A DNA stretch of 64,000 nucleotides from an uncultured Planctomycetaceae bacterium. GTDB lineage: Bacteria > Planctomycetota > Planctomycetia > Planctomycetales > Planctomycetaceae. Shown here piece by piece: positions 14,162-24,938 of the stretch. The notes below the pieces were generated by a model. It was not told the origin of the DNA. It saw only the letters and a list, made by a program, of their open reading frames with translations, and did no database searches. Made by a program: the position numbers and the translations under genes. Each line of letters begins with the position of its first letter. The stretch's first letter is position 1. The stretch lies in assembly GCA_963815195.1 (NCBI GenBank), contig CAWFGE010000008.1, positions 96,001 to 160,000 on the forward strand, written 5' to 3'.

Positions 14162-14371
14162 GAACCTTAGACGTTCTGCGATCGGCTCGGGAAAACGCGC
14201 TCCTGCACCCTTGTCGGATTAGTGAAAAACACATAAATCATAGGTTCGATGTCCGGTTCGCTCCCCGAGCCAAACAGTACCATTTCGACTCACCCGGGCA
14301 GTTTCAAAATCGAACTTTCGAGGTTATGACCTCTCTTTGGAATTTCGAAGAGGGCCCGGTTCCCTCCACTG

Positions 14372-14410
14372 AACCCCTGGATCGCAACCCCGCGACCCAG
14401 GGGTTTTCTC
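14372..14410 (+). terminator. Hairpin, probable intrinsic terminator
   Basis: aacccctggatcgc / gcgacccaggggtt followed by ttctctt. Confidence 0.5.
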
Positions 14411-15101
14411 TTGCGCGGGCCGAGACAATTGCAAAATCGGCCAACTTATCCCAAGTTGCGGCAACAACTTACACCGTGAGCCAGCCGTGGCTTGTCTCAC
14501 GTGTTTGCGAATGGAGACACACGATTCGGCGTCGAATGGGATCGCCCGAAAGCTCTCGACGCTTTCGCCGAGAGCCGACCCTGGGGTTATGGCTTTTTGT
14601 CTCCATGTCTCTACGCTCATTACCCAGGAAAAAGTGCGAAACTGGCGACCCGGAGGTTATGAAGGCGAGATATTCTGCCGGGTAATGAGGTCGAGACATT
14701 TTACGGTCGCAAGAAGCGGGATTCGCGGCGGGAACATCATCGAGCGGACTCGCGTTTTTCAGTGTCCCATCAATGCCTTTGAAGCCGGTCGGGTTGCCGA
14801 CGGGGAGCACGGCGGCCGCGGCTTGGGGCCGTTGTCCGCCTCAGCCACGCCGGACCGCGATGGTTGCGTGCGAAATGGGACCGTCTATGGGCATCGCGAG
14901 TCATCAACGAGTCCCAGCGACGCAGCATCCTTTCAGAATATCACCCGCTCCCATCGCGTCTTGGAAATGAATTCGTGCCTGGGAGGATTTTTTGGCAAAA
15001 TCCTTGAATTCCCGAAAAAAATCGTTGGTCGATATTTGCCAAACGACTATTATGACTAATGTTCATGTTGCGCGGCCGACACATCCCCCAAATGGAATTC
15101 C

Positions 15102-16424
15102 ATGATGGCCGACCTCATCAAAACGCTCGAAGAGTTGGCGGAGCTTCCCCCAAACGCATTGGAGAAGTGCGACGTCGCCTTGCTCAATCTCTGGGCCGCC
15201 CACGGATTGCCGGGAACGGAAGATCTCAACATCGCCACGATTTTGAATACGCTCGACGAATGGGCGGAGAAGGTCCAATGGGAAATCTGGCGGCACATCT
15301 ATCGCCTTGACCCTCGGACCGTGGTACCGCCAACGGAATTCAGTTACGGGAATTCCTTGGGGCGTTTTTTCTGTTGGTACTTGCTGCAAGTGCTCCAAGA
15401 GGATTGCGGCGTCGCTTATCACCCCGACCGCAAATTCAATCCCGATTTCTGCCAACCCGAAGATGTGTTTATTCATGGGATGATTGTCGAAGGCGGTCGA
15501 GGCGGAACTTGTGCCTCCATGCCCGTGTTGTATGTCGCTGTCGGGCGGCGGATTGGGTTGCCGCTTTATCTTGTCGGAACGCGGGGCCACCTCTTCTTCC
15601 GTTGGGACGATCCCAAAGGCACAACAATCGACTGGGATCGACAAGGCTTGCACCTCTGGATTCCACCGGATCGGTTCAATGTGGAAGGTTCCGGCGAGGG
15701 CATCGCATATCGTGCCGATTCGCACTACATCCAATGGCCGGAGTTGTGGACGGAGGTGGACTTCAACCACGGTCGTTATCTGCGTTCCCAGAGCGCTGCC
15801 GAAGACGTGGCGGATTTTCTGATGCAACGCAGCGAATGCTTCTACGAACTGGGGAACTGCGAAGAGTGCCTGAAGGCCATCTATTACGCCAGCAAGTTCT
15901 CGCCGGACGATCCGCGGCTCAAAGGAACTCACGCCAAGCGGACAAAAGAGTTTCAGGAGAAAATCCGGCGAGCCGAGTCGATTCAGGAAATCGACGCTTG
16001 GAGCCGCGAACAACGAGCCAAAGCGAAACCCGCGATTCCAGGACACGATCTTCAATGCCGTTGCGAACGCTGCCGGAAGGTGCGGTTGATCGAACAATCG
16101 CGGCCCACGGATCACGGCGGTTCTTGCAATTGCTGGCACTGTCGGCAAATCCGCACGATTCAAGAAGCTGAACCCCAAGGCATCCCAAATCACCACCCAA
16201 CGTGCCAGTGCCTTCGCTGCCAAAACGCCCGGAAAAATGTCGATGCTCACACGGGCTTGCCTGGGCATCCGGCGTCGTGTTCCTGTTTCGATTGTCAACA
16301 ACAACGCCGAATGCCATCGCCGATCTACGCGAAACCGCCTCTACCAGCAACGCCTCGCCTTCCCGGCGTGCCCCATCAACCAATCGTCAATCGCCACCAC
16401 CCGCCTGGATTGCCGGGAACGTGA
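15102..16424 (+). CDS. Transglutaminase-like (SirB1/Transglut_core2-like) protein with four Cys/His repeats and a Pro-rich tail
   Basis: GGTCASMPVLYVAVGRRIGLPL..V...GHLFFRW...NVE; four H-x3-CxC-x2-C motifs. Confidence 0.75.
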   Translation: MMADLIKTLEELAELPPNALEKCDVALLNLWAAHGLPGTEDLNIATILNTLDEWAEKVQWEIWRHIYRLDPRTVVPPTEFSYGNSLGRFFCWYLLQVLQEDCGVAYHPDRKFNPDFCQPEDVFIHGMIVEGGRGGTCASMPVLYVAVGRRIGLPLYLVGTRGHLFFRWDDPKGTTIDWDRQGLHLWIPPDRFNVEGSGEGIAYRADSHYIQWPELWTEVDFNHGRYLRSQSAAEDVADFLMQRSECFYELGNCEECLKAIYYASKFSPDDPRLKGTHAKRTKEFQEKIRRAESIQEIDAWSREQRAKAKPAIPGHDLQCRCERCRKVRLIEQSRPTDHGGSCNCWHCRQIRTIQEAEPQGIPNHHPTCQCLRCQNARKNVDAHTGLPGHPASCSCFDCQQQRRMPSPIYAKPPLPATPRLPGVPHQPIVNRHHPPGLPGT

Positions 16425-16446
16425 TCTTCAACCAAGGAGACTCAAA

Positions 16447-17190
16447 ATGTATCAGCCGACACTTGGCAGATTCACCGCGCGTGACCCGATGCCTGAAAAC
16501 GGTGTACTCGTAGGGGGGATTCCACAAAGTTCTTATTGGTATGCGAATAATAATCCCGTAAACTTCGTTGATCCCAGTGGTCTTCAGAGCAAGAACCCGT
16601 ATTCGGTAGCTTATCCCGAGGGGCCAGGTTTTGTATTTCCAACAACGACGGACGAACCCGAATTCCCGGCGGTACCAACTTTTCCAGAAGCAGGTAAAGA
16701 AGGAAAGGCGTTCAAGAACGCAAGGACTCTGCTGGGCATCAATTGTCTAGAGTATCTGAGTTGTCCATCAAGAAAAGATGCTCGCCAAAAGCCAATTCCA
16801 AACATCGGCCCGCCTCCAAAACCCATTCCAGTTGGCCCAACTGGTGGATACTCAAAGTTCTATGGAAAGCCATCGAAGGAGCCGATCGGTGGTGGGGGAG
16901 CTGATCCGTGCGCGGTCGTCGTCTTGCGTTGCAAGCGAGGGGCGGCCGTTTTTCACTTTACCCCCGGAGACGATCCGTTCGAGACATTAGGGTGGAGCAG
17001 CTTAATCGGAAGAACCATAGATTGGAAGGGATGCGAGGCGATTGTTTGCGGGGGAGATGATACAACTCAGTCTAACTGCCTCCACGACGATGTTTTGGCT
17101 GCGTTGAAGTCAGTCGGAATCAAGGTTCTAGGCGTTTCTCCTTTTTCCAGCTGTGGACTGAATCCCGATGGAACATGGTATCAAACCTAG
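16447..17190 (+). CDS. Mini-Rhs protein 1: Rhs core terminal motif plus CheD/CNF1-like C-terminal domain
   Basis: AAGGAG RBS; MYQPTLGRFTARDP...YWYANNNPVNFVDPSGL; DPCAVVVL..AAVFHF..EAIVCGG. Confidence 0.8.
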   Translation: MYQPTLGRFTARDPMPENGVLVGGIPQSSYWYANNNPVNFVDPSGLQSKNPYSVAYPEGPGFVFPTTTDEPEFPAVPTFPEAGKEGKAFKNARTLLGINCLEYLSCPSRKDARQKPIPNIGPPPKPIPVGPTGGYSKFYGKPSKEPIGGGGADPCAVVVLRCKRGAAVFHFTPGDDPFETLGWSSLIGRTIDWKGCEAIVCGGDDTTQSNCLHDDVLAALKSVGIKVLGVSPFSSCGLNPDGTWYQT

Positions 17191-17812
17191 AACGGCTGCA
17201 AGACTCCGTTGGGTCTTTATGGTGATTGTTTTCATTGCTCCTTTCATCGGGATTTGGATCCGTCAAATACGAGTTGAGCAAATCAAGGTGGAAGGTGCGC
17301 GGATGAGGGGTCAGCTTGCGCAGATTCATTTAGCGTTAAATAACTTTGAAACGGTGAATGGTCATCCATTGCCGAGATTGATGCAATCGAAGGATGGAAC
17401 AACCGTAAGTTGGCGGGAGCGACTCATCCCCTACCTCTATGATATCTATGACAAAAAAGAACATCCTGAATTGCTCACCGAAAATGCTCCAATTTGGTAT
17501 CGTAGCCGATCGGATTCGAGCGATCCCACCTTCACAAGCATCGTAGCCGTTTATGACCCCGACAACAACGGCGACAATTCGCAAAGAAACTTCGCTGTCG
17601 TGGCTATGGCGGAGACTGGTATTCGCTGGAGGTCTCCGCAGGATTTCACGTTGGCTGACTTTGCAAAGCTTTTGTCTCAAAGAGATTCGTCGAGTCAAAA
17701 CCCGATCACCGTAATAAGCGCATCTGGAAAGTCATTGTCTTTTGTCGATGGCGGGTTAGTCACATATAATCTTGAGCATCAAGAAGAATTAAGCGAGTTG
17801 TTGTTTCGCTAA
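17168..17812 (+). CDS. DUF1559-like membrane-anchored protein, candidate immunity/partner
   Basis: N-terminal TM helix; QLAQIHLALNNFE, SWRERLIPYL and W.SP.D motifs; overlaps the upstream stop. Confidence 0.65.
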   Translation: MEHGIKPRTAARLRWVFMVIVFIAPFIGIWIRQIRVEQIKVEGARMRGQLAQIHLALNNFETVNGHPLPRLMQSKDGTTVSWRERLIPYLYDIYDKKEHPELLTENAPIWYRSRSDSSDPTFTSIVAVYDPDNNGDNSQRNFAVVAMAETGIRWRSPQDFTLADFAKLLSQRDSSSQNPITVISASGKSLSFVDGGLVTYNLEHQEELSELLFR

Positions 17813-17895
17813 AGCCTTACTCAACGAACAGAAGTAAAGTGACGTGTAATTCATGGTTTGGGCCTCGTTTACTTGGGTGCGAGTCGTAGAGTGAA

Positions 17896-19672
17896 CCCGG
17901 ATTATTCACCTAAAAAGCTGAAGAAAGAAGGAACCATCGCGTAACCCTCTGCGTCTTTAGTGGTATATGCAATCCCGATTCCATACGGAGGTATCACGCG
18001 ATGGGTGAAGCTCAGACTAGCGTTTTCGATCCCGATTTCAATCGTTCCATCAAGGTCAAAGCCGTCGATCAGCGGCTCACGTCACACGCCGGTGCCGTTC
18101 TGCTGCGGGACTTCGATCATCAACTCGGACTGACCGAATCGCTCGCCGATCGATTGATCGATCCCCGCCGGCAAGACCGCATCCGCTATCAGGGCGTCGA
18201 ACTGCTGCGGGAAAGAATCTATGCCATGGCCATGGGGGACGCTCATCAGGATGATCTTGACCGGCTCGCCCATGATCCCGCCATCAAGATGGCCGCCTGG
18301 GACCGTCCCGGCGAAGAGGTCCTCAACCAACGCATGGCCAGCCAACCCACGCAATCCCGCCTCATCGATTGGTTGGCCGACTGCAAAACGAATCTCGAGG
18401 CCGTGCGGAGCGCCTTGTTCGACTGGACCCATCGGCATATCAAGAGCACCGACCACAGCGATCGCCGCGTCCGCTACGCCACCATCGACATCGACAGCTT
18501 CCCGATCCAGGTTTACGGCCATCAGGCGGGGGCCAGCTACAACGGCTACTACAAAGAAATCGTCTATCATCCGATGGTCGCCAGTTTCTCGGTCGGCGGC
18601 GATTACGACAGCACGCGGGAAGGATAGCGGCTGGGAAACGGATTCATTCATGCGGTCTTGCGGCAAGGCAACGTGCATACGGCCAATGGCATCCGGCGGT
18701 TTATTCGCAACGTCGTCGAAAAGGCCCGGCAACTGGCGTGGAGCTTCGACCTGCGGCTCGATGCGGGTTACATCGCCGGCCCGGTGCTGGATGAGTTGAC
18801 CGACGAAAACATCCGTTTTTGCGGGAGAATCAAGAAGAACAACGTCCTGGAAACGTTGGCCGAGCCGCATTTGAAGCGTCCGGTCGGACGGCCGCCGAAA
18901 GGTGGATACGAGGACGTAATCGAACTCGGAAAGTACCAGGCCGAAGGCTGGCGTCATGCCCAGCGGGTGATTCTGGTGATCGTCGACAAGCCGGATGCGA
19001 AGACGGGCCAATTGGAATTGTTTCCGCGTTACTTCTTCCTGATCACGAACTGGACGAGGAGAACGCTCGGGGGATGAGGTGCTGTCGCACTACCGCAAGC
19101 GCGGCACGTTCGAGGACCGGCTGGGCGAATTCAACGAGGCGATCGGCTGCCGTCTTTCGTCGTCGGAGTTTGCGGAGAACGAGGTCACGTTGCTGTTGGG
19201 CCTGCTGGCTTTCAACCTGTCGTCGATGATGCGATCGAGTTCGAAGACGAGTTAGGCGGTTGCTGGGATCTGCGTCGTTTCCAGCAGTCGGTGCTGCGGA
19301 CAGGCAGCGCGGGTGGCGAAGCGTTCCCGCCGGCTGGTGATCTACATTGAGCAAAGCGTGCGACCATTTTGGGCAGCGATGGCTTCCCGCATCCGTTCGC
19401 TTCGTCTGGCCGACCTCTGGCCGCGTCCCCGCGGCGTTCGCCCGCGGGCCTACACACCTCTCCCACGTCACGCCCATGAGCAACTGGTTCTTCGGGACTG
19501 AGCTGTTCGCCGTCGTGGCATCCGCCTTTCTATTTCTTTCCTTCACTCACCCAACCATCGCCAGGCCCCTGGGGGAAAGGGGGCGGTCCGCCCATCCTCC
19601 GCTCCCCAACCACCCTGTGCACTTTCCGCCACGGAAATACTCACCACGCACGGACCTGATGAATAATCCGGG
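17896..19672 (+). mobile_element. IS1380-family insertion sequence, 1777 bp
   Basis: Perfect 13-bp TIR CCCGGATTATTCA / TGAATAATCCGGG; 5-bp TSD GTGAA at 17891-17895 and 19673-19677. Confidence 0.92.
18001..19501 (+). pseudogene. IS1380 transposase with in-frame TAG (18625-18627) and frameshifts after ~19070
   Basis: LTSHAGAVLL, ASQPTQSR, IDIDS, YNGYY, RLDAGY and Y..RG..E motifs in broken frames. Confidence 0.88.
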
Positions 19673-19768
19673 GTGAAGCAGAGGGCCATCGGATTTAACC
19701 AGTTATCAATCGCCATCAGCCGCCCGGATTGCCGGGCACTTAATCCTCTATCGCGCAGGAGAATTAAA

Positions 19769-20561
19769 ATGTACATGCCGGAACTTGGCCGATTCACCGC
19801 CCGCGACCCGATGCCGGAGGATGGCGTGTTGGTCGGAGGCTTGCCGCAAAACTCGTATTGGTATGCTAATAATAATCCTTTGAACATGGCCGACCCATCC
19901 GGATTGGCAGCTGAACCAGTATTTGACAACTCATGTTCGCTCCAGGAGCAGGCGTGCATTATAGAAGCGTGGGAGTTGGCTGATAAGATTTTAACGCAAA
20001 ATGAACAATCAGTAAAAGCGAACTGCCCCGACAATAAGCCGATGTCATGTGATCTAAAGCAACTTGTGGCTTGCATTAGAAATGCACTAACGTCCGTCAA
20101 GATTGCTTGTGCTAACCGTGGAGAGGGCGGCTGCCACAAAGGTCAGAAAAATCTGGGCCATACGGACACTCCCTGTGGTCGGATTAAGGGACTTGCGTCC
20201 ATTGGGATTCTCTGTTCCGTCGCCACCAAGCCCACTTTTCCCATGGTTACCAAACATTCTATGCAGTCCCTGTAAACACTTCTTGCCTTATGCTAACGAT
20301 TGTTCCTCCTGTCCCGATGAAGCTCTCACAGGTGCAAAAACATACCTTTGCCGTGACCAAGCACCAGGCGGAAAAAGCATCGCTGGATCGTGCGGTAACC
20401 AGAAAGGCACAAAATGTCTTGCTGCATTATTGGTTCACGAAGCATCACACAATTGCGTAGGGGGGCATGGTACGACCGGTGGAGAAGGCAAATGTGATAA
20501 GTGTGGGAGGCCAGATTCATCCAGTATCGGTGAACGCTTTAAGAAGGCGGTAGGCTGTTAA
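19769..20561 (+). CDS. Mini-Rhs protein 2: Rhs core terminal motif plus Cys-rich HExxH peptidase-like domain; frameshift ~20180-20230
   Basis: AGGAG RBS; MYMPELGRFTARDP...NNNPLNMADPSGL; LAALLVHEASHNC in the +1 frame. Confidence 0.72.
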
Positions 20562-20597
20562 CACCATGTGAATTGGAGCCAAAGTTTGGGGTATGGC

Positions 20598-21629
20598 ATG
20601 AGTTTTAATACAATAATAACTGCTTTAGGTTTATTGCTCGAAGTTAGCACCTCATTACAACCGATGTCATTCGGTGACGAAAAACGGATTGCTAGCAAGC
20701 CGACGCTTACGGCCGCATTTCCAGGAGCCGAAGGACGGGACTTTAGCGTCAAGTGCGTCACATTCTCACCGAATGGAAAAATGCTCGCGATGGGTTCGGG
20801 CGACAACAAGCGAGGTGTCATCGACTTGTGGGACGTGAAGACAAGAGATCGGATTCTCCGTCTTAATGGGCACGCCGGATATATCTATTCCGTCGCTTTC
20901 TCAGCCAACGGGAAGATGTTAGCTTCATCAAGCTTCGATGGAACGGTTCGGCTTTGGCAGATCCCTAGTGGAAAAGAATTGCACGTTTTGAAGGGGCATC
21001 TGAAATTCGTCCCCTGGGTCGTTTTCTCACCTGACGGTAAGTTAGTTGTGTCAGGCGATGATGAAAATATTTACTACTGGAATGCGATAACAGGGAAAAA
21101 GAAGGCAAGCGTCAAAGCCCACAACGGAGGAACTGATGCCTTGGCATTCTCCCCGGATGGAAAAACCCTGGCATCCGGAGGATTTGATAAAAGCATTAAG
21201 CTCTGGGACGTTGGGACAACGAAATTGAAAAGCACATTATTCAAACATAAGGGGCCGTTGCAATGCGTGGCATTTTCTCCCGATGGAAAAACGATGGCCG
21301 CATCGCCGAGGAGCTATAATACGGTCACTTTATATGATATCCAAACAGGCCGCCTCAAAAATCTGGAAACCGATAAAGCAATTTGGGGAACCATCTCATT
21401 TTCTCCTGATGGGCGAACGCTCGCGGTCGGAGAGCAAAAAAGCGTCCTCTTTTTTGACGTGGCCTCGGGCAAGAGAATCTGCAATTTCAAAGCCCATGAT
21501 TACTCAATCTATCAAGTTGCCTTTTCTCCCGATGGAAAGTTTCTCGCAACAGCAAGCTCGGACAATAGTGTGAAGCTTTGGAATGTCGAGTTTCTTAAAG
21601 ACAGGTGCGCCAATTCGCCTTGGCCATGA
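20598..21629 (+). CDS. WD40-repeat protein, candidate immunity/partner
   Basis: About 7 repeats of FSPDGK.LAS...D..V.LW; hydrophobic N-terminus. Confidence 0.88.
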   Translation: MSFNTIITALGLLLEVSTSLQPMSFGDEKRIASKPTLTAAFPGAEGRDFSVKCVTFSPNGKMLAMGSGDNKRGVIDLWDVKTRDRILRLNGHAGYIYSVAFSANGKMLASSSFDGTVRLWQIPSGKELHVLKGHLKFVPWVVFSPDGKLVVSGDDENIYYWNAITGKKKASVKAHNGGTDALAFSPDGKTLASGGFDKSIKLWDVGTTKLKSTLFKHKGPLQCVAFSPDGKTMAASPRSYNTVTLYDIQTGRLKNLETDKAIWGTISFSPDGRTLAVGEQKSVLFFDVASGKRICNFKAHDYSIYQVAFSPDGKFLATASSDNSVKLWNVEFLKDRCANSPWP

Positions 21630-21639
21630 CTTCGGCAAC

Positions 21640-21932
21640 CAAACGATGTATTCGTCGGGAACATCTCGATGCACAAGATCGCTCATCGAGTTCACGAACA
21701 CCATCTGCGGCTTAGGCCAAAGGAACGGCTCGGTCAGTTTCTCCGGGACCAGACGCAGATCGAATCCCTGCTCGTAGGGATGGCCCGGCACGCCGCGAAA
21801 ACGTTCCGCGAACGTTTCGGCGTAACAGTGGGCACAACCTGGGCTGATTTTGGTGCATCCTCGGACGGGATTCCAGGTCGTGTCGGTTTTGGTGTTTGTA
21901 CTCAACGGTGGTTCCTCCGAATTGAAAGTCAA
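21640..21932 (-). pseudogene. DUF5131 (phage Gp37/Gp68) radical-SAM-like fragment
   Basis: TWNPVRGCTKISPGCAHCYAE...FVNSMSDL.H; truncated against the WD40 gene end. Confidence 0.8.
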
Positions 21933-21995
21933 ACCTCGAAATTGCGATAAAAAATGGGGCGAATTGCAAGCGGCGACGGTTGAAGCAGATCCATT

Positions 21996-22397
21996 TCATT
22001 CCGTTTGCAAACGCTCCTCCATTCGACGCCACATTTCCCTTTGCCTTCCCCAATCCACCTCGGCCGCAATCGGCCTCAGCATTTTCTCATGAACCGGATC
22101 CTTACCTTCCATCACCCGCGGCAAAAACAGCAACTCCTCTTGAATCTCCGGTGCCAAATACAACAGATTCAAAATCTGCGTCATGCGAGGCTGCGTAACG
22201 TGGGCCAGTTTTGCCAATTCCGTTTGGTCGCGGACGACGCCATCCCGCAAAAAACCATCGTACCGAATGGCCAACGCCATCAGACGCGAAATTCGCGGAA
22301 TCCGTCCTTCCGCCACGGCCACGGGTTTTTCGGTCGCAATCTTCTGTTGGCCACGTTGGACTTTGCCGAAATGCAGTTTCTGTTTGACGCGGATCAT
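21996..22397 (-). CDS. Recombinase-associated small protein (HTH-like)
   Basis: ELAKLAHVTQPRMTQILNLLYLAPEIQE; overlaps the recombinase stop. Confidence 0.75.
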   Translation of the reverse strand: MIRVKQKLHFGKVQRGQQKIATEKPVAVAEGRIPRISRLMALAIRYDGFLRDGVVRDQTELAKLAHVTQPRMTQILNLLYLAPEIQEELLFLPRVMEGKDPVHEKMLRPIAAEVDWGRQREMWRRMEERLQTE

Positions 22398-23959
22398 ACC
22401 GTCACCCCCATTTGCTGGGCCAATTTCTTAATCGCGGTCGGATGGAATTCCATTTCGATGCTGCTGTCTTTGGGATCGAATCCGACCTGGGAAATCAGCA
22501 AGCCAACCAGTTGGCATTGTTCGCGGGGACTCAGCGCATCCCACAGACCGTCGAAATCGCCGAACGCGGCGTCCACGTCTTCCCGCGTCAATTGGTCGTT
22601 TTCCGCGGCGGCGATTTCTTCCGCCAATTCCGGCATCCGGCGTTCCGCCTCCGAAATTCGATTCTGCAAATCGGCGATCAACGTCGTCGCGGCGGCATCC
22701 AGGTTCGTCACCGCCTGGCGGATTTCCCGATGATGGCGGGACAGTTCCCGTTCCAATTGCGTGCGTTCCAATCGCAGGCGGGCCAGTACTTCTTTCGCGT
22801 ACAATTCCGCCTGTCGCAAGACTTCGGCCTTCAGTTTGCGGTCCGTGGCAATACAGCGGATCTGGTCCACCACGACGCCTTCGATTTCCGGTGCCCGCAA
22901 GGACGGCGACGGGCAGGTTTGGTAGCCGCTTTGGATCGCCCGGGAACACGTATAGTAGCGGTAGCGTTTGCGCCCGCGTGCCGTGAAAGTATGCACCATC
23001 GCCCGCTGGCAGGCCTTGCAAACCAGCCGGCCTTTCAGCAGCGCGGCGTGCTTATTCCGCACCTCCGCCCCGCCCGCGCGGTTGTTCTGTTTCAGCCGGG
23101 CTTGGACCTCGCGAAACACTTCCTTCGGGATGATGGCTTCGTGCTCGCCCTCGAAGAATTCCGTGTTGTGTTTGACGCGGCCGGCATAGATCGGATTCGT
23201 CAGCAGCGCATGCAGGCTGGACTTCTCGAACGGCCGGCCCCCACGCCGGTGGCCTTTCTTTGTCAGCCATTCTTTGTTGGTCCACCCCCGCCGTTCCAAT
23301 TCTTCGACCACGGCCAACAGCGAACCGTGCTTCTGGTACAAATCGAAGATTTCGCGAACGCGGGCGGCTTCCGTGGCGTTGATGACCAATTTGGGGCTGT
23401 GGCCGGAACGGTCGACGTCGTAGCCCAGAACGGGGATCCCGCCCGCCCATTTGCCTTTCCGCCGCTGGGCCGCGATCTTGTCGCGGATGCGTTCGCCGAT
23501 GATCTCGCGTTCGAATTGGGCAAACGACAACAGGATATTCAACATCAGCCGGCCCATCGACGTGGCCGTGTTAAATTGCTGCGTCACGGAAACGAACGAC
23601 ACCTCGTGTTGGTCGAAGACCTCCATGATGCGGGCGAAATCCAACAGCGACCGGCTCAGCCGGTCCAGTTTGTAGATCACGACGCAATCGACTTTCCCGG
23701 CTTGGATGTCTTCCAGCAGCCGCTGAAGCGCCGGCCGTTCCATATCGCCGCCGGAATAGCCGCCATCGTCATAGCGGGTTTGCAAGCAGACCCACCCCTC
23801 ATGTTGCTGGCTGGCAATATACGCCTCCCCGGTTTCGCGTTGGGCGTCCAGCGAATTGAATTCCAGTTCCAAGCCTTCTTCATGGGACTTGCGGGTATAA
23901 ATTGCACAGCGGATTTTCTGCGTCGTTTTTTGTTTGGGTTTGGATTTCTTGCGCGGCAT
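22394..23959 (-). CDS. Large serine recombinase
   Basis: AIYTRKS, DDGGYSGG..ERPAL, YKLDRLSRS, FAQFERE, zinc ribbon C..C...C and coiled coil. Confidence 0.95.
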   Translation of the reverse strand: MPRKKSKPKQKTTQKIRCAIYTRKSHEEGLELEFNSLDAQRETGEAYIASQQHEGWVCLQTRYDDGGYSGGDMERPALQRLLEDIQAGKVDCVVIYKLDRLSRSLLDFARIMEVFDQHEVSFVSVTQQFNTATSMGRLMLNILLSFAQFEREIIGERIRDKIAAQRRKGKWAGGIPVLGYDVDRSGHSPKLVINATEAARVREIFDLYQKHGSLLAVVEELERRGWTNKEWLTKKGHRRGGRPFEKSSLHALLTNPIYAGRVKHNTEFFEGEHEAIIPKEVFREVQARLKQNNRAGGAEVRNKHAALLKGRLVCKACQRAMVHTFTARGRKRYRYYTCSRAIQSGYQTCPSPSLRAPEIEGVVVDQIRCIATDRKLKAEVLRQAELYAKEVLARLRLERTQLERELSRHHREIRQAVTNLDAAATTLIADLQNRISEAERRMPELAEEIAAAENDQLTREDVDAAFGDFDGLWDALSPREQCQLVGLLISQVGFDPKDSSIEMEFHPTAIKKLAQQMGVTV

Positions 23960-24696
23960 TATTTCGCCTCCAGGTTAAAGAAGCGGAATCCGTTGCAGTG
24001 CGATCCGGTGACGGCCTTGGCAACGGCGGACAGGGATTGGTAGCGGTCGCCCTCCCATTCAAAGCCGTTCTTCAAAACGCGGACTTCAATTTCGCGACCT
24101 TTGTACTGGCGGACGATGGAAGTGCCGGGTGTCGGCAGCCGGGGATCGTGGGAAACGGCTTTGGGAATCGGGCTGGCGGTGAAATCTTTGGGCGGCGTGG
24201 TGCGGACCTCGGCGTCGACGGCCAGTTCCGCCGCCGACTCCGATCTGGGCAACGGAATGTCAGTCGGAAGCTCCCACTCCCACACCAGCCCGTCCTCGGG
24301 ATGATCGACCGTGCGCATCATTTGGAAGCCGAGTTTCTTCAGGATGCTCGTCGAAGCGTTCTCTTCGGGCAGCGTCTGGGCAAAGACCGCGAGACTGGCG
24401 TTCTCTCCACGGGCGAGCTTCACGAGTTCGCTTGCAAGCGCCGTGGCCACTCCCTTTCCCTCGTGGGCGGGTGCAGTGCCGTAGGCGATCTCGACCCGTC
24501 CATCAACTGGTTTTGACTTGTACCCGCACACACCGACCGGAACTCCATCATCCAAGCCGACGTAGCCGGTCCACGGCGGCACAAAGCCCGTCCGCCGATA
24601 GTGGCCAACCGTCGCCTGGATCACTTCTCGCAAGAAATCGTTCCGTTCGACATCTTCCGACAGCTTGCCGTTGTCGCCGATTTCGATGAGCCTCAT
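23959..24696 (-). CDS. GNAT acetyltransferase fused to a DUF2924 C-terminal half
   Basis: VEIAYGT.P.HEGKGVAT and N.AS..IL.KLGF, then DPRLP.PGT.IVRQYKG...YQSLSAVAKAVTGSHCNGFRFF. Confidence 0.75.
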   Translation of the reverse strand: MRLIEIGDNGKLSEDVERNDFLREVIQATVGHYRRTGFVPPWTGYVGLDDGVPVGVCGYKSKPVDGRVEIAYGTAPAHEGKGVATALASELVKLARGENASLAVFAQTLPEENASTSILKKLGFQMMRTVDHPEDGLVWEWELPTDIPLPRSESAAELAVDAEVRTTPPKDFTASPIPKAVSHDPRLPTPGTSIVRQYKGREIEVRVLKNGFEWEGDRYQSLSAVAKAVTGSHCNGFRFFNLEAK

Positions 24697-24711
24697 TCGT
24701 CGTTCCTTACA

Positions 24712-24797
24712 GCTTGCAATGAGCCGGTGATCTCGTCGATCTTCTCGGCGTCGTCCGGGCCGATGGCGAGGCAGGTCCGAGTCGGCACACCGTGGAG
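24712..24797 (-). pseudogene. Peptidyl-tRNA hydrolase 2 (PTH2) C-terminal fragment
   Basis: Hand translation HGVPTRTCLAIGPDDAEKIDEITGSL. Confidence 0.65.
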
Positions 24798-24938
24798 TCA
24801 CCCTCCCCAGTGCAAAAGTTGGATTGAATCCAAATCATCACCACCGTAATTCGTGGATGTCATTGTCGCATAAGAACTGAGCGTGCAGAATGAAGGTAGC
24901 GCCAAATCCCGACTCCCAAATGCAGAGGAAAGTTCCCT

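Follow-up and report, generated by a model that had tools for sequence, protein, structure and literature searches.

A transglutaminase-fold enzyme paired with a cage-less terminal Rhs motif in a predicted toxin-immunity module of Planctomycetota

The present study concerns a gene module on a 64,000-nucleotide stretch of DNA from an uncultured Planctomycetaceae bacterium (contig CAWFGE010000008.1, positions 96,001 to 160,000; hereafter the window, the numbering of which is used below, with the module on the plus strand). In this module, the gene for a transglutaminase-fold enzyme (TG) is followed by a small effector gene, in which a fragment of the terminal Rhs core (the head) precedes a variable C-terminal domain, and by a partner gene. 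The conserved TG/head-toxin/partner module was confirmed, and its first copy, cassette 1, is intact in the window. The observed basis consists of the gene order, translation signals, exchangeable C-termini, homology arms that point to TG, matched localization, natural fusions, and an intact catalytic motif. We consider it highly probable that TG and the head form one functional unit. That TG binds the head and frees the toxin by cutting in trans is a tentative reading, to which we give slightly less than even weight.

The TG gene (15102..16424) encodes a SirB1/menin-like protein of 440 aa, and 22 nt separate its stop codon from the ATG of cassette 1 (16447), which is preceded by an AAGGAG ribosome-binding site (RBS; 16434..16439) and opens a 247-aa reading frame running to 17190. 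As the initial annotation had described, the first 46 residues (16447..16584) are the terminal Rhs core only; they matched TIGR03696 at positions 37-76 of 76 (E = 2.5e-10, 40.7 bits against a cut-off of 32.5) and include Asp13 and Asp42. The variable domain that follows (201 aa, 16585..17190) has a conserved Cys and His and belongs to a recurring family that accounts for 9 of 65 C-termini. The gene of partner 1 (17168..17812), a probable immunity protein that has an N-terminal transmembrane (TM) helix and is DUF1559-like (E = 0.02), overlaps the effector frame by 23 nt. In agreement with the same annotation, YD repeats, PAAR, VgrG, and signal peptides were all absent from the reading frames of the module in the window.

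Loci were collected by TG alone (68 genomic, 73 metagenomic, and 10 from viral contigs) and supplemented with whole-genome profile searches; two of them (L068 and L141), which were Pseudomonas-type matches to the Cys-rich tail only, were excluded before counting. In the pooled set, a short head with a variable C-terminus, as the annotation had anticipated, was located directly downstream of TG or fused to it in 117 of 122 non-redundant intact TG loci, and this linkage spans TGs that are as little as 20-35% identical. Within the first set (139 loci and the two of the source genome, G000, which is 8.9 Mb in size, 94.6% complete, and carries a second TG copy on contig C17), the head lay within 60 nt of the TG stop in 96 cases and within 1.2 kb in 15; 15 loci reached a contig end, and the 15 without a head were mostly broken TG genes. 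TG was present in 45 of 401 Planctomycetia genomes, in which 65 loci were examined; 19 were broken or partial, and a head was found at 42 of the 45 that were intact with downstream room. At distant SirB1-like loci used as a control, of which only approximately 1.5 kb of flank was available, the head was found in none of 22. In the reverse test, a DNA pattern for Met-start heads was detected in 28 of 401 genomes, namely, in 20 of the 45 with TG and in 8 of the 356 without it. Since related genomes are not independent, these counts are tallies rather than tests, and the correlation between TG and head distances (rho 0.65, 62 pairs) shows co-descent only. No other neighbor, neither an upstream gene nor a secretion gene, was conserved around TG loci. 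At one locus (L335, G578:C177), two tandem Met-start mini-Rhs cassettes are present with TG not adjacent but elsewhere in the genome, an arrangement that is consistent with action in trans.

These data bear directly on the view that the cassettes are ordinary decayed Rhs orphans beside an unrelated TG gene, which we regard as highly improbable. The frameshift in cassette 2 and the insertion sequence (IS) in the locus, both described below, the many broken TG copies, and a few TG loci situated inside ordinary Rhs arrays are features that decay would produce; however, it is already contradicted by the linkage across such divergent TGs, and the heads have their own RBS and start (69/69), signal-peptide versions, and fusions. 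Codon differences among the three heads of the source genome are also mostly synonymous (21 vs 8, 20 vs 7, and 14 vs 5). The proposal in the initial annotation that these are translated mini-effectors, not decayed Rhs ends, is supported by the linkage, the RBS, this synonymous bias, and the homology arms described below. The heads of the source genome are only approximately 43% identical to its own cage cores. Programmed read-through from TG into the head was considered and rejected because the spacing of the two genes varies between -47 and 54 nt, with every frame represented.

Regarding TG itself, the protein matched PF13369 just above the cut-off (E = 1.7e-5, 24.7 bits against 23.5). Its motif residues, Cys137, His163, and Asn193-x-Glu195, are followed by TPR-like helices (residues ~230-305), His/Cys3 repeats (~315-405), and a Pro-rich tail; neither a signal peptide nor a TM helix was found in the window TG. 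In 30 TGs of all subtypes, fusions included, Cys, His, and Asn were invariant and Glu was conserved in at least 90%, and the Cys motif was kept in 144 of the top 150 TG representatives; Arg167 was also invariant. A structure model (pLDDT 87) gave menin as the best fold match (Z 13.9, root-mean-square deviation 4.1, 226 residues aligned), a Z that helical proteins can reach by chance, followed by bacterial transglutaminases (Z 8.9 and 8.8); Foldseek returned no match to the model at E ≤ 0.001, with weak menin hits only. The family is a distinct subfamily, with profile scores above 140 bits versus below 100 for other SirB1-like proteins, and comprises 1,446 clusters at 50% identity with E ≤ 1e-30. 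PF13369 in bacteria is described as being of unknown function (PMC10318531). The His/Cys repeats, which are encoded at 16040-16320 as four His-x3-Cys-x-Cys-x2-Cys units, occur only in part of the family and probably bind zinc. Three other proteins (P0128, P0129, and P0130) have two tandem TG domains, the first of which is apparently degenerate in P0129 and P0130.

Rhs self-cleavage requires two Asp residues, according to two reports (PMC10684867; bioRxiv 2021.09.14.460138), and, according to a third (PMC13018210), an Arg located 13 residues N-terminal to the first of these. In 62 heads, Asp42 was invariant and Asp13 was conserved in at least 90%. Head position 2 aligns with BiTLP residue 2105 and YenC2 residue 652, so that BiTLP R2103 falls before Met1 and the head begins one residue after the Rhs Arg. 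This Arg was absent in 96 of 103 long heads and kept in 7. Thirteen heads are even shorter, keeping only the Y-x-Y..N-x-P....DPxG end, and most of them, by eye, lack the first Asp; the smallest conserved unit is thus the cleavage-site motif. The loop between the head motifs varies freely in length. The aspartate pair of the autoprotease named in the initial annotation is present, but a working self-cleaving head is doubtful considering the absence of Arg, the 13 shorter heads, and the fact that only 46 aa of the plug remain. We considered whether a C-terminal Arg of exported TGs could supply the missing residue; this was rejected because only 11 of 63 TM-type representatives have Arg as the last residue, and several Arg-terminal exported TGs arise from a stop/start overlap. 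At four loci (L050, L121, L123, and L127), heads keep the Arg and carry a basic N-terminal extension of 40-50 aa.

The head N-terminus lies at a fixed position. Of the 122 distinct long heads compared, a start codon with an RBS is located there in 95, and 7 others start one codon earlier, with Ser as the second residue in all 7; none starts two or three codons earlier, and 20 have no start at either position. Initiator Met is removed before Ser. The predicted signal cleavage in 11 of 13 long signal heads falls at the same point, 12 residues before the first Asp. However, ordinary Planctomycete Rhs genes often have an internal Met at this same site, which argues against over-reading the fixed N-terminus. 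One reading of the module, which we consider possible but rather unlikely, is that TG is a chaperone in substitution for the cage; by binding and folding the head, it would make the Rhs aspartyl site functional, the positive charge coming from TG or from the free N-terminal amine of the head, and its own catalysis would serve another substrate. Both Asp residues are conserved in long heads, the N-terminus is fixed by a Met start, a Met-Ser start, and predicted signal cleavage alike, and TG offers a menin-like peptide pocket and the invariant Arg167, all of which are in line with such a role. It fits less well with the short heads lacking the first Asp, the TGs of which still keep the catalytic motif, or with the absence of a conserved second substrate gene nearby.

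The module occurs in four forms. Cytoplasmic long heads, as in the window, are represented by 84 with a Met start; the exported form combines a TG bearing an N-terminal TM helix with a head bearing a signal peptide; the 13 short heads are exported or cytoplasmic; and the fourth form is a single chain of TG, linker, head, and toxin, which was found seven times among the best 150 cluster representatives with an intact catalytic motif and an eighth time at L284. Five of the seven fusion representatives are in clusters of 2-5 members. A TM-type TG accompanied 17 of 18 signal-peptide heads versus 2 of 98 non-signal heads, the signal peptides having been called by hydrophobicity and by eye. Signal-peptide heads may share one origin. 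A single-sequence fold of the natural fusion P0151 gave a mean pLDDT of 34.6, too low to read. A possible intermediate form was observed at L191 (G049:C4:83463-86100), where a highly divergent TG with a TM anchor precedes a signal-peptide head, the core of which is longer and contains Arg. At L031:1-6750, a TM-anchored TG and a signal-peptide head are situated among genes that, by eye, resemble those for type II secretion and that represent a possible export route of the exported class. The exported version and natural fusions, together with the Arg-offset start of the head and the loss of the first Asp in some heads, are new beyond the initial annotation. From these cytoplasmic, exported, short, and fused forms, TG occupies the place of the Rhs YD cage.

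An enzyme in this place may also join rather than cut. As a ligase (a transpeptidase or transglutaminase), TG would couple the free N-terminal amine of the effector to a carrier (for instance, a protein at the cell surface or a full-length Rhs cage encoded elsewhere), which would serve as its delivery vehicle, and toxin domains would then be swapped at the protein level after translation, not via DNA recombination. The three routes that fix a free N-terminus, the retained aspartates, a fold belonging to acyl-transfer families, and the matched localization are compatible with ligation, as is the presence of YD-cage genes beside some TG loci (L103, L050, and L126) and in the source genome, in which three such genes on C15 (326050-333184, 544610-547852, and 299000-305641) are frameshifted or IS-interrupted as assembled. 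Nevertheless, since Rhs cores were present in 192 of 301 genomes, the co-occurrence of cages says little. The N-termini of the cytoplasmic short heads are ragged, the catalytic Cys is retained in fusions even though these are already joined, the frequent Met in ordinary Rhs genes provides a simple origin for the start site, and signal-peptide heads may have a single origin; we consider ligation unlikely. One of the source-genome cage genes has a long Ser/Glu-rich N-terminus and a leucine-rich-repeat partner.

Returning to cleavage in trans, the model that we propose is a polymorphic module of three genes for toxin and immunity in Planctomycetota. An active Cys enzyme with a transglutaminase fold would substitute for the YD cage, and the effector would retain only the terminal Rhs motif, which would be its constant tag before an exchangeable toxin domain. 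The head would dock in the pocket between the enzyme and TPR parts of TG, which would then act as a protease in trans and cut at DPxG or close to it, thereby releasing the toxin, and the partner would neutralize the latter. We propose a protease acting in trans because the head by itself does not contain what self-cleavage requires; this reading is favored by the minimal unit being the cleavage-site motif, by the incomplete self-cleavage residues, and by the preservation of catalysis even in fusions. A number of points weigh against it. TG-head contact and cleavage are both predictions from sequence. The conservation of the first Asp in at least 90% of long heads fits self-cleavage better than cutting by TG, as does the retention of Arg and both Asp in fusions, and an exact N-terminal register is not demanded by a protease. 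Counting relied on a head profile derived from 62 of the same loci; among the five intact TG loci outside the 117, the head was upstream only in three and was not found nearby in two (L254 and L291). The eight genomes that contain the head pattern without a detected TG include four in which it lies inside ordinary Rhs genes and four with standalone heads, three of the latter near contig ends. Furthermore, no Pfam family was found for 44 of 48 C-termini or for most of a further 68 proteins, and because most C-termini match no family, we can only infer their toxicity.

Regarding the cargo, 65 C-termini fell into 49 clusters, and an identical type of C-terminus was found on different heads. At least four Cys residues were present in 50 of 69 C-termini, and 41 of 58 partners had a hydrophobic N-terminus. 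Family matches among 116 proteins included a CDI EC869-like nuclease (2), phospholipase A2, TGL (2), DUF6973, and AMOP, and weak matches included HNH-type ones, AHH, WHH, and Tox-PL-2. The C-terminus of cassette 1 did not match Pfam; its comparison with CheD was weak (hhalign probability 13%, E = 0.002, with Cys and His aligned), suggesting at best a weak kinship to CheD/NTAN1 deamidases. Homologues of partner 1 follow homologous C-termini at three loci (L014, L056, and L087), and the partners are probable immunity proteins. The cargo is AT-richer than TG at 61 of 69 loci, and in the window, as previously annotated, it is AT-richer than its surroundings (GC 0.493 for cassette 1 and 0.482 for cassette 2 against 0.597 for the genome); only 0.6% and 0.3%, respectively, of 7373 genome windows have a GC as low. 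With its constant head, exchangeable C-termini, immunity gene order, and spare cassettes with arms, the module behaves, as far as gene content indicates, as a polymorphic toxin system. The module, with a C-terminus like that of cassette 1 and a DUF1559-like partner, was observed in a phage contig (L206:3814-6439) with genes that, by eye, resemble those for terminase and portal proteins.

This mobile context raises the possibility of a cell-internal toxin-antitoxin or abortive-infection module, the toxin of which would never be delivered and the TG of which would be an activator that senses a trigger; we consider this improbable. Secretion genes are not conserved nearby, VipB and VgrG had no match in the source genome at its 94.6% completeness, with no type VI secretion system found, recombinase or integrase genes flank both of its TG loci, one module is on the phage contig, and the Rhs tips of Salmonella are produced inside the cell as toxin-antitoxin modules of type II, as described in PMC7043789. 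On the other hand, the exported class carries signal peptides, the hydrophobic partner N-termini and Cys-rich C-termini suggest a location beyond the cytoplasm, spare cassettes arranged in arrays are a usual mark of conflict between cells, and PADLOC gave no match for TG or the cassettes.

The proposed exchange of cargo is illustrated by cassette 2. Its head (19769..19906) is, as annotated, identical to that of cassette 1 at 38 of 46 residues, is likewise restricted to TIGR03696 positions 37-76, and has an AGGAG (19757-19761) at the same 7-nt spacing from the ATG (19769). The two cassettes share DNA from 69 nt upstream of the ATG, namely, from 47 nt inside the TG gene, so that the arm (19697..19768) consists of the last 47 nt of this gene, the spacer, and the RBS. 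Homology arms of orphan cassettes extended into the TG 3' end at four of seven loci tested, bearing out the earlier suggestion that the arm points to TG rather than to an Rhs core; a TG-end arm is likewise present in the spare cassette at L050. Cassette 2 and other silent cassettes may swap with the active one by recombination through the TG end, RBS, and head, or may be used by tandem translation. An apparent joint between 16397 and 19717 in sequencing run X1 was rejected as a recombinant, being a contig of the C17 paralogue. That C17 copy of TG is 88% identical and is followed by the same type of head with a different C-terminus and partner.

Cassette 2 was annotated as a repeat of the whole design, which holds for the head and RBS, but not for an intact unit or an overlapping partner. 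As assembled, its frame ends at 20275 (168 aa), and the remainder of its Cys-rich variable domain (19907..20561), including HExxH, is in another frame that ends at 20561, with the break near 20200-20240; cassette 1 is, therefore, the only intact unit in the window. Sequencing reads gave zero cover over 20114-20350, and so the break may be a lesion or an assembly error. Four intact natural homologues (P0291-P0294, 254-285 aa), which are Met-start mini-Rhs proteins, span both broken parts. HExxH and a lead to M35 suggest that this domain is metallopeptidase-like. The gene of partner 2 (20568..21629), a probable immunity protein with a WD40 propeller and a hydrophobic N-terminus, begins 6 nt after 20561. 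The two cassettes are separated by a degenerate IS1380-type element (~17897..19676, plus strand; a DDE_Tnp_1_4 transposase in pieces), an intruder outside the system with many copies in the source genome.

From its composition, the module would lie outside Rhs proper, ordinary orphans, and the toxins with inactive transglutaminase domains. It shares with Rhs/YD-repeat toxins (RhsA, Tse5, TcC-type cores, and bacterial teneurin-like proteins) the DP...DPxG core, the variable C-terminus after DPxG, an immunity gene, and spare cassettes, but has no YD cage, PAAR, or VgrG, retains core positions 37-76 only, mostly lacks the Arg, has its own start codon or signal peptide, and has a separate enzyme as its constant partner. 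Orphan rhs-CT/rhsI cassettes, including the Salmonella modules of PMC7043789, are also cage-less translated Rhs tips with an immunity gene; their start lies within an rhs gene, and they are joined to a cage gene by recombination, whereas here the arm leads to TG, and the module encodes a dedicated enzyme of its own. The toxins with inactive N-terminal transglutaminase domains (PMC3482391) have this fold before an Rhs-type toxin, in some cases preceded by a TM helix or signal peptide; however, those domains are catalytically dead, and RHS repeats invariably follow in the same chain, while here the triad motif is intact, repeats are absent, and TG is usually a separate gene. Fold and domain order are common to SirB1/YchA-like Transglut_core2 (PF13369) proteins with TPR and to menin, from which TG differs as a distinct subfamily with a fixed neighbor. 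HINT, ZU5, caspase-like, papain-like, and PVC metallopeptidase domains process polymorphic toxins, by autoproteolysis within the toxin chain, according to PMC3482391; the proposed job of TG is alike, except that it would act mostly in trans on the Rhs motif. A literature search with incomplete coverage of subscription papers and of the supplements of PMC3482391 found no description of the TG-head pairing, which is also not mentioned in the available portions of PMC3495828 and bioRxiv 2026.07.13.738213.

Upstream of TG, a leader (14332..15101, plus strand) that is likely part of the mobile unit is approximately 83-86% identical, in two blocks, to the C17 TG locus. A non-coding block within it (14343-14748), copies of which are present at C8:438607-439010 (93%) and on C17 (86%), could be an element end or a regulatory region; an Rfam search of this upstream region gave no match, and promoter and terminator scans were at chance level only. 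Downstream of the module are a serine recombinase and a DUF2924 gene, and the C17 copy is near a gene labeled by eye as integrase-like. On the minus strand of the window at 21504-24801, a truncated DUF5131 gene, a 133-aa open reading frame, the large serine recombinase, and a GNAT-DUF2924 fusion would represent the edge of an integrative element adjoining the module.

Rhs toxins are understood as caged, self-cutting proteins; here, the cage has gone across a large family and an enzyme is in its place. The head provides a first testable substrate for a bacterial PF13369/SirB1/menin-like enzyme, the family holds many toxin and immunity domains that lack annotation, and a protease or ligase of defined sequence specificity, together with its short tag, would be useful as a tool. 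Taken together, the module offers a new handle on competition among Planctomycetes and is suggestive of a mode of arming toxins in bacteria that has not been described.

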